Of a stretch of 64,000 nucleotides of DNA, positions 1-7,285 are shown in pieces. Numbering within the stretch: position 1 is the stretch's first letter; every line of letters begins with the position of its first letter. The stretch covers positions 1-64,000 of IMG/VR virus record IMGVR_UViG_641201006_000001. One strand, 5' to 3'. This DNA comes from a virus (Duplodnaviria; Caudoviricetes). Under the pieces are notes generated by a model that saw nothing but the letters and a program-made list of their open reading frames with translations, had not been told where the DNA came from and ran no database searches. The position numbers and the translations under genes are program-made.

Positions 1-353
1 GGAGCAGGGAGAGAAAGGGACGAAAAGAAAACTATTTCGCCCATATACGTTCGTCGATTGCCCGATGATGCGTGCGAACGCAATCATATAAAGCATCAAG
101 CGTGCGAATGCGTTTCGAATGAAAGCAATGCGACGCAAAATGAAGATGCCATATATACAGGGACGACGAACCATAACTGGTAGAGCGTACCAGTTGTACA
201 AGAACGACGCTGGGTGGTGAACGGCTCGCTCTGCTCGCCGTCGTAGGTCACTGCGTTTCCCCACAACACCCTTCCTGCGAATACGCCGGAGGCGGGGTAT
301 CACACAAGCAGAACCTCTATTGACTGCGAACACGGTCTGAATGTACGACCGTA

Positions 354-1100
354 CTACGCTCCACATCTTAACCATGCATCTCTTATTTCATAACCGGTTG
401 GCTGACGTTCATTGTTGCTAACGAACAACTCACGAAATTCGACCAACCACGATGCATCTACTGTTCCGCTGTATCTTGTCACTAGAGTATTTTCCTTACG
501 CTCCGCAGGACTCACATTCTCCTGCTTCGGTTTATTATGCGTCTGTACTCGCTTACGCTCCTCTTGTTTTACTCGTACGGATGCTGGCATCTTACGTACT
601 CGGACTAACGCTTTTACTATGCGTGCAATGTCACCATGCACTCCATTACTGAATGGCTTAAATGAATCAATCGCTGACTGTATCATCATTGGTTTCATAG
701 GTTTCCCATCCACCTTTATATATGGTCGTGCATCAGATGGATTCCATCCAATCTTAACTGTTACTCCCTTTTGTTTGAAGACAACGCCCAGCTCGTTGCT
801 ACGCACATACTCAAATACTTTCGTGTACGCTGGTGCTGTCTTTTCTTCCGGCTCGCTGTCGCTCGCCGAATCATATCCTAGTTCCTCTGCTACATAGAAG
901 TCATTCAGACACTCTATGCAAATGTGTCCATCATCCTCTGTGTAACATAGGTGACGAGACTCCTCATTGCAGAGTTCACATTGCTCGCTGACGCTCGCAA
1001 GTTTTACAGTCATCACTTTATAACTACGACCAAGTTTCTTTGTTTTCCAATCCATCCATAATACATATCTCTCTTCATTCACTACTGTTAAATTCATCAT
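354..1100 (-). CDS. Hypothetical early protein with a Cys/His Zn-finger-like motif
   Basis: ORF 354..1115; GGAGG SD precedes ATG at 1100 (MMNLTVV). Motif CELC..HLC..HICIEC. Confidence 0.8.
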   Translation of the reverse strand: MMNLTVVNEERYVLWMDWKTKKLGRSYKVMTVKLASVSEQCELCNEESRHLCYTEDDGHICIECLNDFYVAEELGYDSASDSEPEEKTAPAYTKVFEYVRSNELGVVFKQKGVTVKIGWNPSDARPYIKVDGKPMKPMMIQSAIDSFKPFSNGVHGDIARIVKALVRVRKMPASVRVKQEERKRVQTHNKPKQENVSPAERKENTLVTRYSGTVDASWLVEFRELFVSNNERQPTGYEIRDAWLRCGA

Positions 1101-1135
1101 TTTAAATTCCTCCAATTTATATGTTTTTTGTTTAA

Positions 1136-1835
1136 AGCCGGGGACTCATTAGTGGTAGCCTGTTCAGGGCATCTCAGACTTCACCAATCGTGTCCATGAA
1201 GTTGCTAGGTCAACTGACACTGACTGAACAACTCCGTAGAGATTGTTTTCACATGTGCGTGCGTTATGTCTTCTAGTCATGACGTACTCTCCCTCGACCA
1301 AGAGTTAGAGTCGGCGTCCTAGCTTCTTGCACTTCCCTCGAAAGGGTGGCTATCCACTAGGGGCGTCCTCCATTCTTGTTAGTACGGAGAGCAGCAATGA
1401 CATACATGATGTCACGCAATGAGGACTCGTGTTGTCTTAACCCGAAGCAATCTGTGTCCTCACTGCTTCGGGATGTTAGCTGGTTGCTAAGTTTCCTAGT
1501 ACCATGTTTGTCCGCTACCCTATCGCGCTATCACTGATTACGGAGTGACCATCCGGGATACTGAATAAATGCTACATATATCTCACGACATACTGCATTG
1601 CCTGATTCCTCAACAGATCTCTTGTTTATACCGACGTTGATTCAGACGTCGAGGCATACTTGTGAAACGGTGGATGCTTACCGTGCCTGATAGGTCGCTA
1701 CTCGTCTACTGTTATGAGTAACAACGATGTTAGGTCTGATGATTCTACGAGGGCAACCAACCCTCCTCTCTGGTGTAGTTATAGTTGACACCATAAGAGA
1801 CACGATATGCTCATGTCTCCTAGCTACCAACTATA
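1136..1835 (-). ncRNA. Putative large structured non-coding RNA (family not recognised)
   Basis: No ORF >=60 aa; GC-richer than flanking genes; more than 12 stems. G-U pairs and UUCG/GUGA loops favour the minus strand. Long-range helix 1150-1160/1348-1359; pseudoknot 1420-1426/1456-1462. Confidence 0.65.
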
Positions 1836-3488
1836 TTACTGACGACCTAACAACATAGCTTCTAACTGTGTATTTAACGCTTCTTCATCTCCTGTCTCAT
1901 GGAATAGTGCCATCGCATCACACAATGGTGTTGATACTAACTTCTCTGCTGTCATTCTTAATACGCCGTTGTCATCGAAGTCTACATCAGCTACTTGTTC
2001 ATGATTGTTGTACGGCCATAACACTAAGTCTTTTGATACGAAGCCACTGTTCATCATGTTCTCTTTTGTATATACGGTGTATCCTCTCTTACGTAATGTA
2101 TCAGCAACGATTTCCACACTGCCTTTATACTCAACACGACCTGTATATAACTCTTCAATGAATAAGGAATGATCTTCACCAATGCGGATTAAGAATCTAC
2201 CACCCCATCTGTTTTCACCTTCATCGAAATAGCCAACGATTGTCGCACCGGATACATTACCCAACACACCGATGTTGTTGTCATTCACCTTACCTAGTTC
2301 CCACTTCATACATGACGTCCACTCCTTATCTGTTGATACACGTAGTAGATCATCCTTCATACCACTGAACTTCACATGACCTGTCTTCTTCGTATTACGT
2401 GTTTCTACAATGTGTTTTACTTTGCCTAATGGAATACGAATGTCATCACCCAATATTTCCATCACTTGCGGAAACTCTTTTTCAATTCTGTTGATATACT
2501 TCACGACGCTGATCTTTCTGCCATCATCTAGTTGTACCTTGTTCTCCATGAAATCATCCTCATCTAATCGTTGTAATCGTAATAGTCTCATTTGGAATAT
2601 TACTGTGTGTTTGTGTAATGGATTCTCATAATCGACACGCAATGCACTTGATACATCTCGCAATGCTGAATGGAACATCTCATGTGAGTGATTGATTAAC
2701 TCAATGTCGAATGAATCTACAAGCAATGGATGTGCTGCTACTTGTTTGTGATTCGCTATCTTCATCATGTGATTGATTAATACTCTTGGATTGTTATCTA
2801 ATCGTGCTAAGTAATACATATCAACCATCATCACATTACCGATGTCGTACTTACCTGTGAATGTCATCTCTCTATCTACGTATGCATACTTCTTAGTTAC
2901 ATAGTTTTGTAGAACACCTTGTTCATATAGATACTCACAATAGTCTCTGCTTAACTTGTATTCATGTCCGAGTTTGAATCCATACTTCTTCGCACATAAT
3001 GATGCTCTGATATAACCTGTTGGTTCGAACTTGAGTGGACGAATGATACGTTGTTTGAATCCAATCTCTGCTGGTTCTGTGATAACAACCTTGCCGTCGT
3101 AGTAACATGCAGTGATGTTAATGTCGAAGTCCTCTTGTACATACTGACGAATATCATCTGTGTTCACCATCATGATCTCTACACGATACTTACCTATCGT
3201 ACCTTTTAATACTGATACAATTTTACTGATCTCAATGACACGTACTGATTCATCATCATCTTCTACTGTGATACTTGGACGTTCTCTGATTACCTCGCTG
3301 AACATAAAGCCCTTGCTTAATACGTGATATAATACCTCTGACTTACATGCGTCGGATGTAGATACGAACACATCAATGTCATTAGGTTCTTTACCCATCA
3401 ATGCATCTAATACACATCCACCTGCGATAATACCTTTGAAACCTTTTACCACTTTGTATACTTCTTTAATACCTGTACTTGCTGTCAT
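1836..3488 (-). CDS. Class II nucleotidyltransferase (CCA-adding/poly(A) polymerase head-like) fused to an uncharacterised C-terminal domain
   Basis: IIAGGCVLDALMGKEPNDIDVFV matches the GG.VRD...P.DxD motif A; EDFDINITACYYD corresponds to RRDFTINA. AAGGAG SD upstream. Confidence 0.8.
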   Translation of the reverse strand: MTASTGIKEVYKVVKGFKGIIAGGCVLDALMGKEPNDIDVFVSTSDACKSEVLYHVLSKGFMFSEVIRERPSITVEDDDESVRVIEISKIVSVLKGTIGKYRVEIMMVNTDDIRQYVQEDFDINITACYYDGKVVITEPAEIGFKQRIIRPLKFEPTGYIRASLCAKKYGFKLGHEYKLSRDYCEYLYEQGVLQNYVTKKYAYVDREMTFTGKYDIGNVMMVDMYYLARLDNNPRVLINHMMKIANHKQVAAHPLLVDSFDIELINHSHEMFHSALRDVSSALRVDYENPLHKHTVIFQMRLLRLQRLDEDDFMENKVQLDDGRKISVVKYINRIEKEFPQVMEILGDDIRIPLGKVKHIVETRNTKKTGHVKFSGMKDDLLRVSTDKEWTSCMKWELGKVNDNNIGVLGNVSGATIVGYFDEGENRWGGRFLIRIGEDHSLFIEELYTGRVEYKGSVEIVADTLRKRGYTVYTKENMMNSGFVSKDLVLWPYNNHEQVADVDFDDNGVLRMTAEKLVSTPLCDAMALFHETGDEEALNTQLEAMLLGRQ

Positions 3489-3516
3489 GTTTATTCTCTC
3501 CTTTTAATTTAAATAA

Positions 3517-3539
3517 GGAGCCGAGATATACCCGACTCC
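3517..3539 (-). terminator. Hairpin / possible intrinsic terminator
   Basis: Minus strand GGAGTCGGG-TATAT-CTCGGCTCC followed by TTATTT. Confidence 0.5.
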
Positions 3540-3550
3540 GATGATTGTTA

Positions 3551-4225
3551 TTATTTATTTAATACTTCTGCTACTTTCAGTTTCCATACACCTCTTGTTG
3601 GCTTACCTTGTTTACCTAAGTCTCTCATGTATGCTTGATACCCACTGTTGAACTTACTACCTACCTTCTTGAACTTGTTCGCTGCATATACTTCTGCACC
3701 AATCTCTTTATGTGCTTCGATGATAAGATTAGAGATTCTTTCATCCATTGCTGATTCATATACTTTAACTTCCTTCACTTCCTCTTCTTCTTCCTGTGGA
3801 GTGATAACAGGCTCTTCTTGTTGTGGCACGATACTTACTTGTCCTTGCATCATACCTTCCACGATACCACGCATGATACCTTGTACTGCATCTGCTAATT
3901 CCTCTTGTACAACTTCTCTTACTGTTGCTCTGATCTCCTCTTTAAACACTGGCATTACATCCTCTCTAACTGTTTTGATGATTGTATTCTGTACGTTGTT
4001 TGCCCACATTTGTGTTAGTGTCCCAATACTATCACGAGCGATAACAGCGAATATATCCTCTGTTGATACTGGCTTCTTCTTAATAGTTGATACGATTTCT
4101 TTTGCTACTTCCATTTCAGTTTTCTGTTTTAACTTACCTGCACGAATGATTTCTTCATCACGCTTGTTTGCACCATAACGTTTATTCCATCTGTCTAACC
4201 CTGATTGTGTATTCTTCATAGTCAT
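3551..4225 (-). CDS. Hypothetical early protein (helical, acidic linker)
   Basis: 224-aa ORF, GGAGG SD, start overlaps the upstream stop. Confidence 0.85.
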   Translation of the reverse strand: MTMKNTQSGLDRWNKRYGANKRDEEIIRAGKLKQKTEMEVAKEIVSTIKKKPVSTEDIFAVIARDSIGTLTQMWANNVQNTIIKTVREDVMPVFKEEIRATVREVVQEELADAVQGIMRGIVEGMMQGQVSIVPQQEEPVITPQEEEEEVKEVKVYESAMDERISNLIIEAHKEIGAEVYAANKFKKVGSKFNSGYQAYMRDLGKQGKPTRGVWKLKVAEVLNK

Positions 4226-4569
4226 TAGATTGTATCCTCCTGTGTAGATGCTGTTTCAGCCATCATCATTATTTGTTCAAACATAATCTCGAATCTTACT
4301 TCACTTCCTCCATTACCTTGTGCATTCAGTCGAATACCATGATGTGCATACATTTGTTTAATAATCTTTGCTTCATTTGTGCTTTTTAATCTTACGTTTG
4401 TTTTGATTCTTGTTACAGTCAATCTGTCGATACCAAGAGATAACATGTACGATACGCAATCTTTTAAATAAGCCTTAGCTTCTTGTTGTTGGTCTAGGAT
4501 TAGCTTTTGTGCTACGTTGTGTGATAATACCCCTTCAATCATTGAGATTGTTTCATTTGACAACTTCAT
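4225..4569 (-). CDS. Hypothetical early protein
   Basis: 114-aa ORF coupled to both neighbours by TAATG overlaps. Confidence 0.8.
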   Translation of the reverse strand: MKLSNETISMIEGVLSHNVAQKLILDQQQEAKAYLKDCVSYMLSLGIDRLTVTRIKTNVRLKSTNEAKIIKQMYAHHGIRLNAQGNGGSEVRFEIMFEQIMMMAETASTQEDTI

Positions 4570-5594
4570 TATTCCTTATCCCCTTTACTAATTAGTTCAC
4601 TTGTTGCACGTAATGTTCCTGATGCTAAATCCACTCCTGCATGACCTACTTCTCCGCCTAGCTTGATAACTGTTCTACCGGCACGTTCTGTTACATTCAA
4701 TACTTCTCTTGTTAAGCCGAGTGCAGATTCTAATACACTGTTTAATAATTGTGTTCCTCTGTCTACACCTGCATGACCGTACTTATCTACTACAGCAGCT
4801 CCTTTCAATAGCCCTTGTGCGGCACTTAATGTTAAACCTTTGTACTTCGTTCTGATTAATTCCTGTACATCACCTCCCTTCAATGCATGTAATTTCTCTT
4901 CCACTGAACGGTACTCTAATACTAGTTCGTTGTACTTTTGAGGCTTAGTGATATTCTTGTTCATCTCTTGTTGAATATGACCTAGTTGTTTATCTAGCCC
5001 ATCAATGACCTTTTGCTTATCCCCTTCTGTTAATACCAATTCCTGTACTGCTTCTTCTACTACCTGTATGCTATCCTCTGCTACTGCCTGTGCTGTTGCA
5101 TCTGTTACTTGTTGCATCTTCTCTGCTGCCATAGCCAATACTTCTTGTTCTTTCTTAGCTAGTGCTTGTTTCGTTAACTCTCTATGCTGTGCTGTTAGTT
5201 CTTCCTGCATTGCTTTAACCTCTTCCTCTGTGTATACCTTACCTTCTGTTGTTGCTGCTACTTGTTCTTTAGCCATGTTCATTACCTCCATTTGTTGTTG
5301 TATTGCAGTGAATTGATTGATGATCTCTTTCAGTATCTCTGTACGCATACCCATGTTGACGTTAGCACCTAAGTTGTTAGCCTGTTGTACTAGTGATAAT
5401 CGTTGACTATGCATTACTGTTACTCGTTGATATAGCTTGATGATGTTCTCTTTCTTTGTTCTATCACCTTGATACTCTACTAATTGTTTTTCTGCTACTA
5501 CCTTGATGTTTAAGCCCATATCCTTACATAGCGCCCCTGTAATACGGTTAATATCCTTTACTGTCATACCTTCGATTGTTTTTAAGTCTGTCAT
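4569..5594 (-). CDS. Hypothetical coiled-coil protein
   Basis: 341 aa, E/Q/A/K-rich helical sequence, AAGGAG SD. Confidence 0.85.
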   Translation of the reverse strand: MTDLKTIEGMTVKDINRITGALCKDMGLNIKVVAEKQLVEYQGDRTKKENIIKLYQRVTVMHSQRLSLVQQANNLGANVNMGMRTEILKEIINQFTAIQQQMEVMNMAKEQVAATTEGKVYTEEEVKAMQEELTAQHRELTKQALAKKEQEVLAMAAEKMQQVTDATAQAVAEDSIQVVEEAVQELVLTEGDKQKVIDGLDKQLGHIQQEMNKNITKPQKYNELVLEYRSVEEKLHALKGGDVQELIRTKYKGLTLSAAQGLLKGAAVVDKYGHAGVDRGTQLLNSVLESALGLTREVLNVTERAGRTVIKLGGEVGHAGVDLASGTLRATSELISKGDKE

Positions 5595-5615
5595 AATAAT
5601 TAGCTCCTTTTATAA

Positions 5616-5762
5616 TTAGTTGTTTTTGTTTTTATTGATTAACTCACCTAGTGTTGGTGCTAGTTTAATACCTTGTTTCTTTTTGACTATGCTAGTTGAT
5701 ACCTTACCGATACCTGCTTTCTCCACTGTGTTAATGAATGTAACTACTGCTCTCTTCTTCAT
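5616..5762 (-). CDS. Small basic hypothetical protein (48 aa, below the ORF-track cutoff)
   Basis: GGAGGAG SD then ATG at 5762: MKKRAVVTFINTVEKAGIGKVSTSIVKKKQGIKLAPTLGELINKNKNN*. Fills the gap between two minus-strand genes. Confidence 0.7.
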   Translation of the reverse strand: MKKRAVVTFINTVEKAGIGKVSTSIVKKKQGIKLAPTLGELINKNKNN

Positions 5763-5774
5763 ACCTAACTCCTC

Positions 5775-6395
5775 CTATGCAAATAAGTTTTTAATCTTAC
5801 CTAATAGACTACTGAATACACCCTGCTTACCTTCTCCTGGTGGTAATTCATTGTTGTCCTTTAGTCTCTTGATGTAGATGATACGTTTCTCTAACTCAGG
5901 TACTAGATGATGGATACCTAGTCTGATACCCTCTGCTCTCATGATGTTAAGCATTAGTAATACACTCTCCTTTCCACACTGTTGTACTGCATACTCATCA
6001 CACTTAAACTCTTGCTCTGTCACCTCGTGCTGTTCTGTTAGATGTCCAGTAGGATACATGATATGACCTAGTTCATGAGATACTAGTGCTTGTCTTACAT
6101 ACTGGTTACTGTTGAATGATTTATAGTCATATACAATAATCATGTAATCTAAGTAGTATCCTGTTAGTTCAGCGATTTGTTCATTGTCATACACTGTCAT
6201 CATTACAGTTAAGATACGAGTGTCGATGTGGTGCTTCTCGATGTCCTCAATGGATAGTTGATGATGACTTGCTAAGTCTTGTGGTTGTTCGATGATAGCA
6301 ACATGTTCTGTCTTGCCGTTGATGTTTACAGTGAATACTTCTTTCACCGATTGTCTTACTTCCATTACTTCTGCTTGCGTTAGTTTGTCTGTCAT
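5775..6395 (-). CDS. Zincin metallopeptidase (HExxH; M48/ImmA-IrrE-like)
   Basis: ALVSHELGHI...EFKCDEYA = HExxH plus downstream E..(A/C)D..A; GGAGG SD. Confidence 0.8.
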   Translation of the reverse strand: MTDKLTQAEVMEVRQSVKEVFTVNINGKTEHVAIIEQPQDLASHHQLSIEDIEKHHIDTRILTVMMTVYDNEQIAELTGYYLDYMIIVYDYKSFNSNQYVRQALVSHELGHIMYPTGHLTEQHEVTEQEFKCDEYAVQQCGKESVLLMLNIMRAEGIRLGIHHLVPELEKRIIYIKRLKDNNELPPGEGKQGVFSSLLGKIKNLFA

Positions 6396-6606
6396 TTGTC
6401 ATTCCTCCATTAGTTTAGGTGTAGTCAAAAGGGGTGGGGCATGAAACAACCCTATACCCCCATTGCTATATATAAGACGTGGTACTCCCCAAAAATATCT
6501 GTAATTTTTTCGCCTATAGGGAATTTCCATATCGTACCAGCCGACTCCTCTTCTTTAGCATGTTGTCGTCGTCGGCTGTAGAATGTTACAAATATGTGCC
6601 GAACTG

Positions 6607-6636
6607 TTGTCAGAAGACTGTATCCTGTGCTACGCT
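6607..6636 (+). promoter_or_regulatory. Putative sigma-A-type promoter
   Basis: TTGTCA-18 nt-TACGCT with extended TG, upstream of the first plus-strand gene. Confidence 0.45.
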
Positions 6637-6670
6637 AGGTGCAGGGAGATAATCGAGGAGGACTGTAACA

Positions 6671-7285
6671 ATGGATGGAGATACTATCGGTGGAGAAGAA
6701 TCGTTTGTAGAGGTTAAGGTAGCGATGGATCACGAAGAGAAGAAGTCGTTCATGTCTCGTCCGGGACTGGATGCGAATGGAGTAAGTAGGTTTGTATTAC
6801 CAAACGGTGGAGATATGAATGTCATCGTCCACGGCAGGGTCGCACACGAGGTAGACGAGATTCTATTCGAAGAGAAATTACCTAGTATGATGAAGACGTC
6901 GAATGAAGACGGTACATTAGAAGCGCCGATAAAAGGTTGTATGACTACAATCTTAGATGGCTCTCACGATCAGATACGTGATGATATTCGTCAAGGCATT
7001 ATGCGTACCGAAGAAACGATTCTCGGTAAACCGGACTCTATACTTGTCGCTGACTTTTGGGTAGAAGAAACTCAAAGAGGTTATCGTGCATCATTCCGTG
7101 ATGTGAAGTTTACGAAAGTAAAGAATGATTTCAATCGTATGGATATCGTATTGACGAATCGTTTCTTCTTTGAAGCGCAGGACGTTGTGTTTACGCCGTA
7201 CAAACGTGATGAAACTGGATGTGTCTCCGTAGCGTTAAGCAAGGAGACAGAAGAAAGATTAAAGAGGATGGTGCTAAATGGCTAA
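6671..7285 (+). CDS. Hypothetical protein
   Basis: 204-aa ORF with GAGGAGG SD. Confidence 0.8.
   Translation: MDGDTIGGEESFVEVKVAMDHEEKKSFMSRPGLDANGVSRFVLPNGGDMNVIVHGRVAHEVDEILFEEKLPSMMKTSNEDGTLEAPIKGCMTTILDGSHDQIRDDIRQGIMRTEETILGKPDSILVADFWVEETQRGYRASFRDVKFTKVKNDFNRMDIVLTNRFFFEAQDVVFTPYKRDETGCVSVALSKETEERLKRMVLNG

Follow-up and report, generated by a model that had tools for sequence, protein, structure and literature searches.

A long gene-free interval in the terminal repeat

The window analysed here comprises the first 64 kb of the 218,948-base-pair (bp) genome of a tailed jumbo phage (IMG/VR record IMGVR_UViG_641201006_000001). The genome carries an exact 6,479-bp direct terminal repeat, all six open reading frames (ORFs) of which are carried by the minus strand. 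Our subject is the stretch of this repeat that lies between the stop codon of a gene for a 550-amino-acid (aa) nucleotidyltransferase (NTase; 1836-3488, minus strand) and the start of the next gene downstream, which encodes a 248-aa protein (354-1100, minus strand). The ORF list shows no ORF between the frames at 354-1115 and 1836-3488 (both minus strand), and in a greedy ORF map (gaps of at least 250 nucleotides, nt) the longest gap of the genome measures 720 nt and the runner-up 514 nt. The downstream gene most likely begins at ATG 1100, since a Shine-Dalgarno (SD) sequence, GGAGG, is present on the minus strand at 1109-1113, 8 nt before that codon, the PHROG profile matches the protein from residue 6 and its relatives are 248 aa long; the non-coding stretch is therefore 1101-1835 (735 nt, read on the minus strand). 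The interval is duplicated in the other terminal repeat, its second identical copy being placed at 213585-214304; within it, the counterpart of 1136-1835 occupies 213605-214304.

Coding potential was scored per 96-nt window with a dicodon model trained on 61 long ORFs of the same genome. For windows starting between 1105 and 1777 the best of the six frames attains a log-odds score of at most 8.0 and most values are negative, whereas the scores of the flanks rise to +27 in ORF 354-1100 and to +34 in the NTase gene. Because none of the six frames carries a coding signal and both flanks are strongly coding, we conclude that 1101-1835 is non-coding; an earlier reading made from the letters alone (the sequence-only reading), which had picked out an ORF-free gap of about 700 nt, was right on this point. 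The contrast in guanine-plus-cytosine (GC) content that it described, about 50% against about 30%, was overstated, as we measure 46.5% in the gap, 41.8% in the genome and 36-44% in the neighbouring gene (200-nt windows). The end of the genome, 1-353, has a GC content of 51.6%, and by dicodon score 1-480 is likewise non-coding; the final ~130 nt of the annotated 248-aa frame, 354-480, have a coding score near zero.

Folding relative to shuffled sequences

Predicted folding stability was expressed as z-scores against dinucleotide shuffles (150 per strand for the whole of 1136-1835). On the minus strand 1136-1835 has a z-score of -3.72, with 1 of 150 shuffles as stable, against -2.03 and 4 of 150 on the plus strand; five 700-nt coding controls from the repeat, taken on the same strand, give -1.81, +1.68, +2.64, +0.82 and +0.38. 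Over the region of a hairpin that directly follows the NTase stop codon (1780-1835), 120-nt windows reach -7.0 for the minus strand against -2.9 for the plus, a preference that fits the G-U pairs of this hairpin. The folding excess is specific to the minus strand, which is the sense strand of both flanking genes and the strand that the sequence-only reading had chosen.

This signal is patchy. The segment 1776-1840, which holds the hairpin, has a minus-strand z-score of -6.62 with 0 of 200 shuffles as stable, and the gap without this first hairpin has a minus-strand value of -2.42. The part that adjoins the downstream gene, 1101-1425, gives -2.56 (0 of 100 shuffles as stable, minus strand), and the middle 354 nt, 1426-1779, give -1.59 (11 of 100, minus strand), a stability indistinguishable from that of shuffles. 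The excess is thus concentrated in the gene-end hairpin and in the part adjoining the downstream gene. The sequence-only reading had the stretch folding almost end to end and had named the shuffle comparison as a check; its claim holds for the 700 nt taken as a whole but fails for 1426-1779, and the lesson is that a z-score over a whole region can mask a mix of parts, some significant and others not. Within the gene for the 248-aa protein, the 120 nt at 841-960 have a minus-strand z-score of -3.8; they include one copy of a 16-nt direct repeat, GCTCGCTG(T/A)CGCTCGC, the copies of which lie at 851-866 and 983-998.

Predicted structural elements

The strongest element of the stretch is the irregular 56-nt hairpin at 1780-1835 (minus strand, as are all the elements described in this section). 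It is predicted to have a basal stem of 11 bp (1835-1825/1790-1780) and, closed by a GCAUA loop, an apical stem of 12 bp (1822-1811/1805-1794), 23 pairs over the two stems with pair probabilities (P) of 0.92-0.98. It is followed by ACUACACC, without a U tract. Among the 224 gene 3' flanks of the genome it ranks 9th, and 12% of these flanks have z-scores below -3; it is an ordinary-looking gene-end hairpin.

The central part, 1426-1779, is predicted to form local hairpins at 1765-1749, 1725-1694, 1684-1667, 1657-1628, 1599-1568, 1489-1477 and 1472-1441. Stems in this part include a 10-bp one at 1725-1716/1703-1694 (P 0.99), those at 1684-1680/1671-1667 (P 0.88) and 1650-1646/1637-1633 (P 0.97), one capped by a GUGA loop at 1593-1587/1582-1576 (P 0.98), and the 11-bp stem of the hairpin at 1441-1472 (1472-1462/1451-1441, P 0.95), the loop of which reads GAGGACACAG. 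Nearer the downstream gene, seven helical segments (P 0.68-0.99) are predicted to build up a long irregular stem that spans ~160 nt at 1256-1418. It is capped by a CCCU-UUCG-AGGG hairpin at 1346-1335 (P 0.88), and its fold is unchanged when 1101-1425 is folded in isolation; a further hairpin of 9 + 5 bp lies at 1198-1235 (P 0.93 and 0.87). The SD sequence at 1109-1113 is predicted to pair with 1138-1144 (P 0.8-0.84) when 1080-1840 is folded, and has other partners in shorter segments.

The local stems named in the sequence-only reading are all present at high pair probability (P 0.88-0.99). Its two more distant pairings fare less well. The loop of the 1441-1472 hairpin does contain UGAGGAC (1462-1456), complementary over 7 bases to GUCCUCA (1426-1420), as the proposed H-type pseudoknot demands, but a rough estimate puts the chance of such a match at ~0.1-0.2 over about 12 hairpins, so that its significance is doubtful; in a loop-to-flank 7-mer test at least one match occurred in 11% of 2000 shuffles, the UGAGGAC loop as earlier drawn falling outside that test. 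The proposed long-range helix 1150-1160/1348-1359 is complementary (5+5 bp with a bulge) but is absent from the helices predicted at P of at least 0.6. By these rough estimates neither the 7-base pseudoknot pairing nor the 5+5-bp helix appears to be more than about what chance would give.

Known RNA families and expression signals

A scan of the whole window against Rfam 15 at gathering scores gave 0 matches, and at expect values (E) up to 10 the segment 1-2200 matched just noise, namely mir-30 at E 9.7 and U8, within the NTase gene, at E 0.34. The group I intron model (RF00028) provided a positive control: at 161026-161274 it finds a site with 32 bits (E 1.7e-7), short of the cut-off, in keeping with the recA intron that the abstract of PMC3239194 names. 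A group I intron in the gap was rejected, as RF00028 is unmatched in 1-2200 at E up to 10 and the gap lies between two complete genes. ARAGORN found no transfer RNA (tRNA) or transfer-messenger RNA (tmRNA) in the 64-kb window and a single odd call, with a 4-base anticodon, in the whole genome (at 183 kb). When relaxed, in a search for a tRNA-like or YrlA-like module, it returned scattered low-quality calls that we regard as noise, and the single T-loop-like motif, sought with a consensus pattern, has 3 of 5 stem pairs. A figure legend in PMC2147016 mentions a table of 'tRNA-like sequences', which may be relevant here. The failure of the sequence-only reading to recognise a group I intron, a tmRNA or any other family, for which it had proposed the Rfam scan, is accordingly borne out by both programs.

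That reading had likened the stretch to a single RNA of about 700 nt of the ROOL/GOLLD class. Rfam's 4227 models include GOLLD, ROOL, OLE, HEARO and raiA, none of which matches at gathering scores or at E up to 10, and these families were rejected. GOLLD and ROOL often neighbour tRNA genes in phages or prophages. The gap resembles them in its size class, its phage context, its lack of an ORF and its many hairpins; it differs in having no Rfam match and no adjacent tRNA genes, and in that half of it is not significantly structured. With a centre no more stable than shuffles, a single RNA of this kind is not supported, and nothing places the stretch in a described family, GOLLD and ROOL included.

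Our scan of 1101-1835 found neither a sigma-70-like promoter nor an intrinsic terminator-like site. The sole terminator-like site in 1-6700 lies a short way upstream of the NTase gene, at 3539-3517 (minus strand); the 1780-1835 hairpin itself was rejected as an intrinsic terminator, since it has no U tract and does not appear in the terminator scan. Sigma-70-like matches are depleted in the repeat (1-6700), where 5 were found against 20.3 +/- 4.5 in shuffles. A 10-mer, CGTTCGCACG, has 18 minus-strand copies in the genome, each within a hairpin, the outer 3-4 stem pairs of which vary between copies yet stay complementary, that is, they covary; behind most copies, upstream of right-arm genes, comes a T-rich stretch with GTA at its end. 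Sites occur in the window at 59-80, where one copy lies, and at 89-110 (minus strand), with 17 more between 144 kb and 212 kb, and the gap has no copy of this repeated hairpin motif. These hairpins are probably the 21-bp 'phage-specific promoter candidates' of PMC2147016, in which 'hairpin' is used once, for a terminator. According to PMC7824862, the RNA polymerase encoded by the phage is of the YonO-like, single-chain type.

The flanking genes

The NTase (1836-3488, minus strand) is predicted to combine a fold like that of class II CCA-adding enzymes with a family-specific C-terminal domain. Its match to the Pfam PolyA_pol head is weak (E 4.8e-4; 20.9 bits, under the cut-off of 23), that to the PHROG nucleotidyltransferase family phrog_1614 has an E of 2.2e-14, and the GG...DxD head motif (G23, G24, D37 and D39) is invariant in 11 of 11 sequences. 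The AF2 model has a predicted local distance difference test score (pLDDT) of 76, and its best Foldseek matches in the PDB are class II tRNA nucleotidyltransferases (E 1.8e-7 and weaker); 46 PDB chains match at E of at most 0.001, led by CCA-adding and tRNA-processing enzymes, with template modelling (TM) scores of 0.2-0.36 and root-mean-square deviations of 12-25 Å. The family is rare: a search of 1.84 billion protein representatives gave 34 homologs, of which about 10 are full length; close relatives form one cluster at 90% identity, and remote homologs are 32-37% identical. The C-terminal domain is conserved in the family and marked by two motifs, WTSCQ.W and GRFLVR.GED. In many of the remote homologs the sequence closes with an acidic tail, ...D(D/E)DLPF, that resembles the C-terminal tip of bacterial SSB; the NTase of the window has no such tail.

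The 248-aa protein (phrog_36578) has a CxxC...CxxC motif near its N-terminus and a strongly conserved C-terminal half. Its homologs fall into 10 clusters at 51-99% identity, the more distant ones at 51-61%, and it belongs to no family in Pfam, NCBIfam or PADLOC. The ESM Atlas gave no lead (best score 0.79), and the AF2 model (pLDDT 57) is too poor for a structure search. For five repeat-encoded proteins PADLOC and NCBIfam returned nothing meaningful.

Relatives and sequence conservation

Searches for the stretch outside its own close lineage were largely negative. Blastn with 1100-1860 found no match in GenBank phages or plasmids, and tblastn of both flanking proteins against phages found only two weak N-terminal NTase matches. 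NTase loci numbered three in metagenome contigs (98-100% protein identity), none in genome contigs, and one, irrelevant, in viral contigs; searches of viral contigs with ORF253, with the 512-aa structural protein and with alignments of the NTase and of the downstream protein gave no loci. In three distant Bacillus jumbo phages, found via the structural protein, the NTase was not found, and a search for the same gap in them gave a best E of 0.07 with matches of 15-23 nt.

The close relatives that could be compared are 96-99% identical. Over the whole repeat the metagenome contig L004 is 96.6% identical, with the differences distributed very unevenly: 1 in 1-353, 4 in the downstream gene, 1 in the gap, 62 in the NTase gene (1653 nt) and 117 in a gene for a 341-aa protein (4569-5594). 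The divergence is thus a mosaic: it is 0.3% in 1-1835 (6 of 1835 nt), rises to 3.75% in the NTase gene and reaches 11.4% in the 341-aa gene, where positions 5201-5600 form a hot spot; this pattern suggests either recombination blocks or fast-evolving early genes in the terminal repeat. Synonymous differences number 3 in the 747 nt of the downstream gene and 42 in the 1653 nt of the NTase gene. The near-identity of the gap therefore belongs to 1-1835 as a block and is uninformative about the gap as such.

Close relatives have at least three substitutions in the gap, the counts for run X15 being drawn from 40 of its 156 differences. One, 1809 G>A, lies in the loop of the 1780-1835 hairpin; a second, 1360 G>A, replaces the minus-strand C-G pair formed with G1319 by U-G; the third, 1564 A>T, affects a weakly paired base. 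All are compatible with the fold, and they are far too few to serve as a test of it.

A more divergent contig, found once each in runs X15 and X10, shares with the gap a single part at 80% likeness or more, an 81-nt island at 1345-1425 in which 11 of 81 letters differ. It also matches parts of the downstream gene; 251 unlike letters take the place of 1092-1344, and the sequence beyond 1425 is unlike. On our reading of these matches, this would be a relative that keeps the gap island and the downstream gene and is without the NTase. DNA patterns drawn from the island gave no match, or one 21-nt chance match.

The stretch or part of it is present in 20 public runs from 11 studies. Near-identical 354-3488 sequence occurs in 20 runs with labels that include sediment, food-fermentation, rhizosphere, biofilm and wastewater metagenomes, and because the labels are so varied the phage lineage seems widespread. 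Run X19 (its kind given, as a guess, as 'RNA?') has a 233-nt contig over 1225-1456 with a word depth above that of neighbour-gene contigs, and leaves 1509-2558 uncovered; in run X15, an RNA library, a single 3832-nt contig bridges 354-3488. All four runs aligned to the window consist of assembled contigs, and neither of these two contigs shows transcription, ends or level.

A proposed composite intercistronic segment and its rivals

The reading that we prefer, tentatively and at somewhat less than even confidence, is that the gap is a composite, non-coding, co-transcribed intercistronic RNA segment of a minus-strand operon and not one free-standing 700-nt RNA. We infer that the NTase gene, the gap and the 248-aa gene would be transcribed together on the minus strand. 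The 56-nt hairpin at the NTase stop codon would, by analogy, be a 3' end-forming or processing element, whether an RNase III-type site, a stabiliser or a terminator that lacks a U tract; some 350 nt of loosely structured spacer would follow; and the ~325 nt that adjoin the downstream gene, with the 1256-1418 stem, the 1345-1425 island and a possibly masked SD sequence, would form a long structured 5' leader that controls the stability or translation of the 248-aa gene. Since the gap contains no promoter, terminator or CGTTCGCACG motif, read-through transcription fits better than a separate gene, and the island and downstream gene of the divergent contig suggest that this part of the gap is tied to the downstream gene and not to the NTase. 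That strong hairpins after genes are common in this genome also supports a composite segment.

Hairpins processed by RNase III lie between the cistrons of phage early mRNAs, for instance the R sites of T7 and those of the SP82 and SPO1 early transcripts in Bacillus. The hairpin at 1780-1835 is like them in being long and irregular, with an internal loop, G-U pairs and no U tract, and in lying exactly at a gene boundary in what would be an early transcription unit of the terminal repeat; such sites have an irregular duplex of at least ~20 bp at the boundary between cistrons, and 23 pairs are predicted here. It differs in that the gap has one such hairpin, which accounts for 56 of its 735 nt, and the cleavage site is putative. 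The ~325 nt near the downstream gene in turn resemble the riboregulatory 5' leaders of Bacillota in folding better than shuffles, in the island that is kept with the gene and in the possible SD masking; they differ in having no Rfam riboswitch, T-box or leader match, no terminator/antiterminator pair and no upstream promoter found.

Several observations weigh against the composite segment. An intercistronic spacer of 735 nt would be unusually long for a phage whose genes are otherwise tightly packed, and a stable processed RNA would account equally well for the whole-stretch z-score of -3.7 and for the strand asymmetry. The hairpin has no U tract, cleavage by RNase III is suggested by analogy with T7 and SP82/SPO1, and SD masking varies with the segment folded. 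Conservation, considered as evidence for an RNA in the gap, was rejected, since the whole of 1-1835 is near-identical in the contigs L004 and L005, and apparently also in those of the public runs, and the synonymous sites of the neighbouring gene are equally quiet. The divergent contig was matched at 80% likeness, at which such joints can stem from other organisms, and the X15 contig that bridges 354-3488 may be DNA carry-over.

One unlikely alternative is that the gap is a spacer largely without function, left over from a lost gene or mobile insert, or has a role at the DNA level only (replication, injection or packaging signal), so that its hairpins other than the gene-end one would be incidental. 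GC content is raised across the whole of 1-1835, which suggests a compositionally distinct segment; the middle of the gap is no different from shuffles, and a coding control next door itself reaches a z-score of -1.81; the low divergence belongs to the whole block and not to the gap; and little of the gap can be aligned with the divergent contig. Against this alternative, no frame has a residual coding signal and the genome has no paralog of the gap. As to a DNA-level role, the gap is free of iterons and tandem repeats, its one direct repeat being imperfect, 17 nt long and at chance level, and it has no DnaA-box-like site within one mismatch; it is GC-richer rather than AT-rich and lies 1.1 kb from the genome end. 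Nor would a DNA-level element need a folding excess that is stronger on one strand, and in PMC2147016 the authors argue that the phage sheds low-value DNA.

We consider it rather unlikely that the gap encodes a large non-coding RNA that founds a new family, either free-standing or processed out of a pre-early transcript, and that would serve as substrate, scaffold or decoy for the NTase. In its favour, the gap is the largest non-coding interval of the genome, the minus-strand-specific folding excess extends over 700 nt as measured, GNRA and UUCG loops and long stems are predicted, and the 5'-edge hairpin could mark the site at which processing releases the RNA. In addition, the modelled fold of the NTase resembles that of tRNA nucleotidyltransferases, which act on structured RNA 3' ends, and the genome has no credible tRNA for it, with none in the window and the one 4-base-anticodon call genome-wide. 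Against this stand the central 354 nt, which are no more stable than shuffles, the lack of any Rfam match at E up to 10 (GOLLD, ROOL, OLE, HEARO and raiA included) or of a tRNA-like or T-loop module, and the absence from the gap of a promoter or terminator of its own. The divergent contig, moreover, keeps just 81 nt, beside the downstream gene and without a recognisable NTase, and GenBank phages, plasmids and the three distant Bacillus jumbo phages yielded no homolog. Distinctly improbable is the fuller version in which a new large phage RNA of ~650-700 nt, cut free at the NTase-gene hairpin, has the NTase as its dedicated partner (as substrate, scaffold or tRNA-end decoy), the two forming a pre-early RNA-protein module in both repeats of a tRNA-less jumbo phage.

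Least probable are hidden very small protein genes, namely a 38-aa minus-strand frame (ATG 1280) and a 46-aa plus-strand frame (ATG 1397), for although a GGAG-type SD-like site lies upstream of both and the plus-strand start and its SD fall within the island 1345-1425, the dicodon scores of both are about zero or negative, together they fill less than a third of the gap, and the match to the divergent contig ends nine codons into the plus-strand frame.

If the composite segment is just a processing hairpin followed by a long leader, as we tentatively prefer, the result would amount to little more than a helpful annotation of an unusual jumbo phage. The NTase belongs to a rare family and has a predicted tRNA 3'-end-enzyme fold in a phage without credible tRNA genes. 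Should it be true that a discrete stable RNA is tied to this NTase, the pair would represent an early phage RNA-protein module of a new kind, with the tRNA-directed defences of the host as a possible target.

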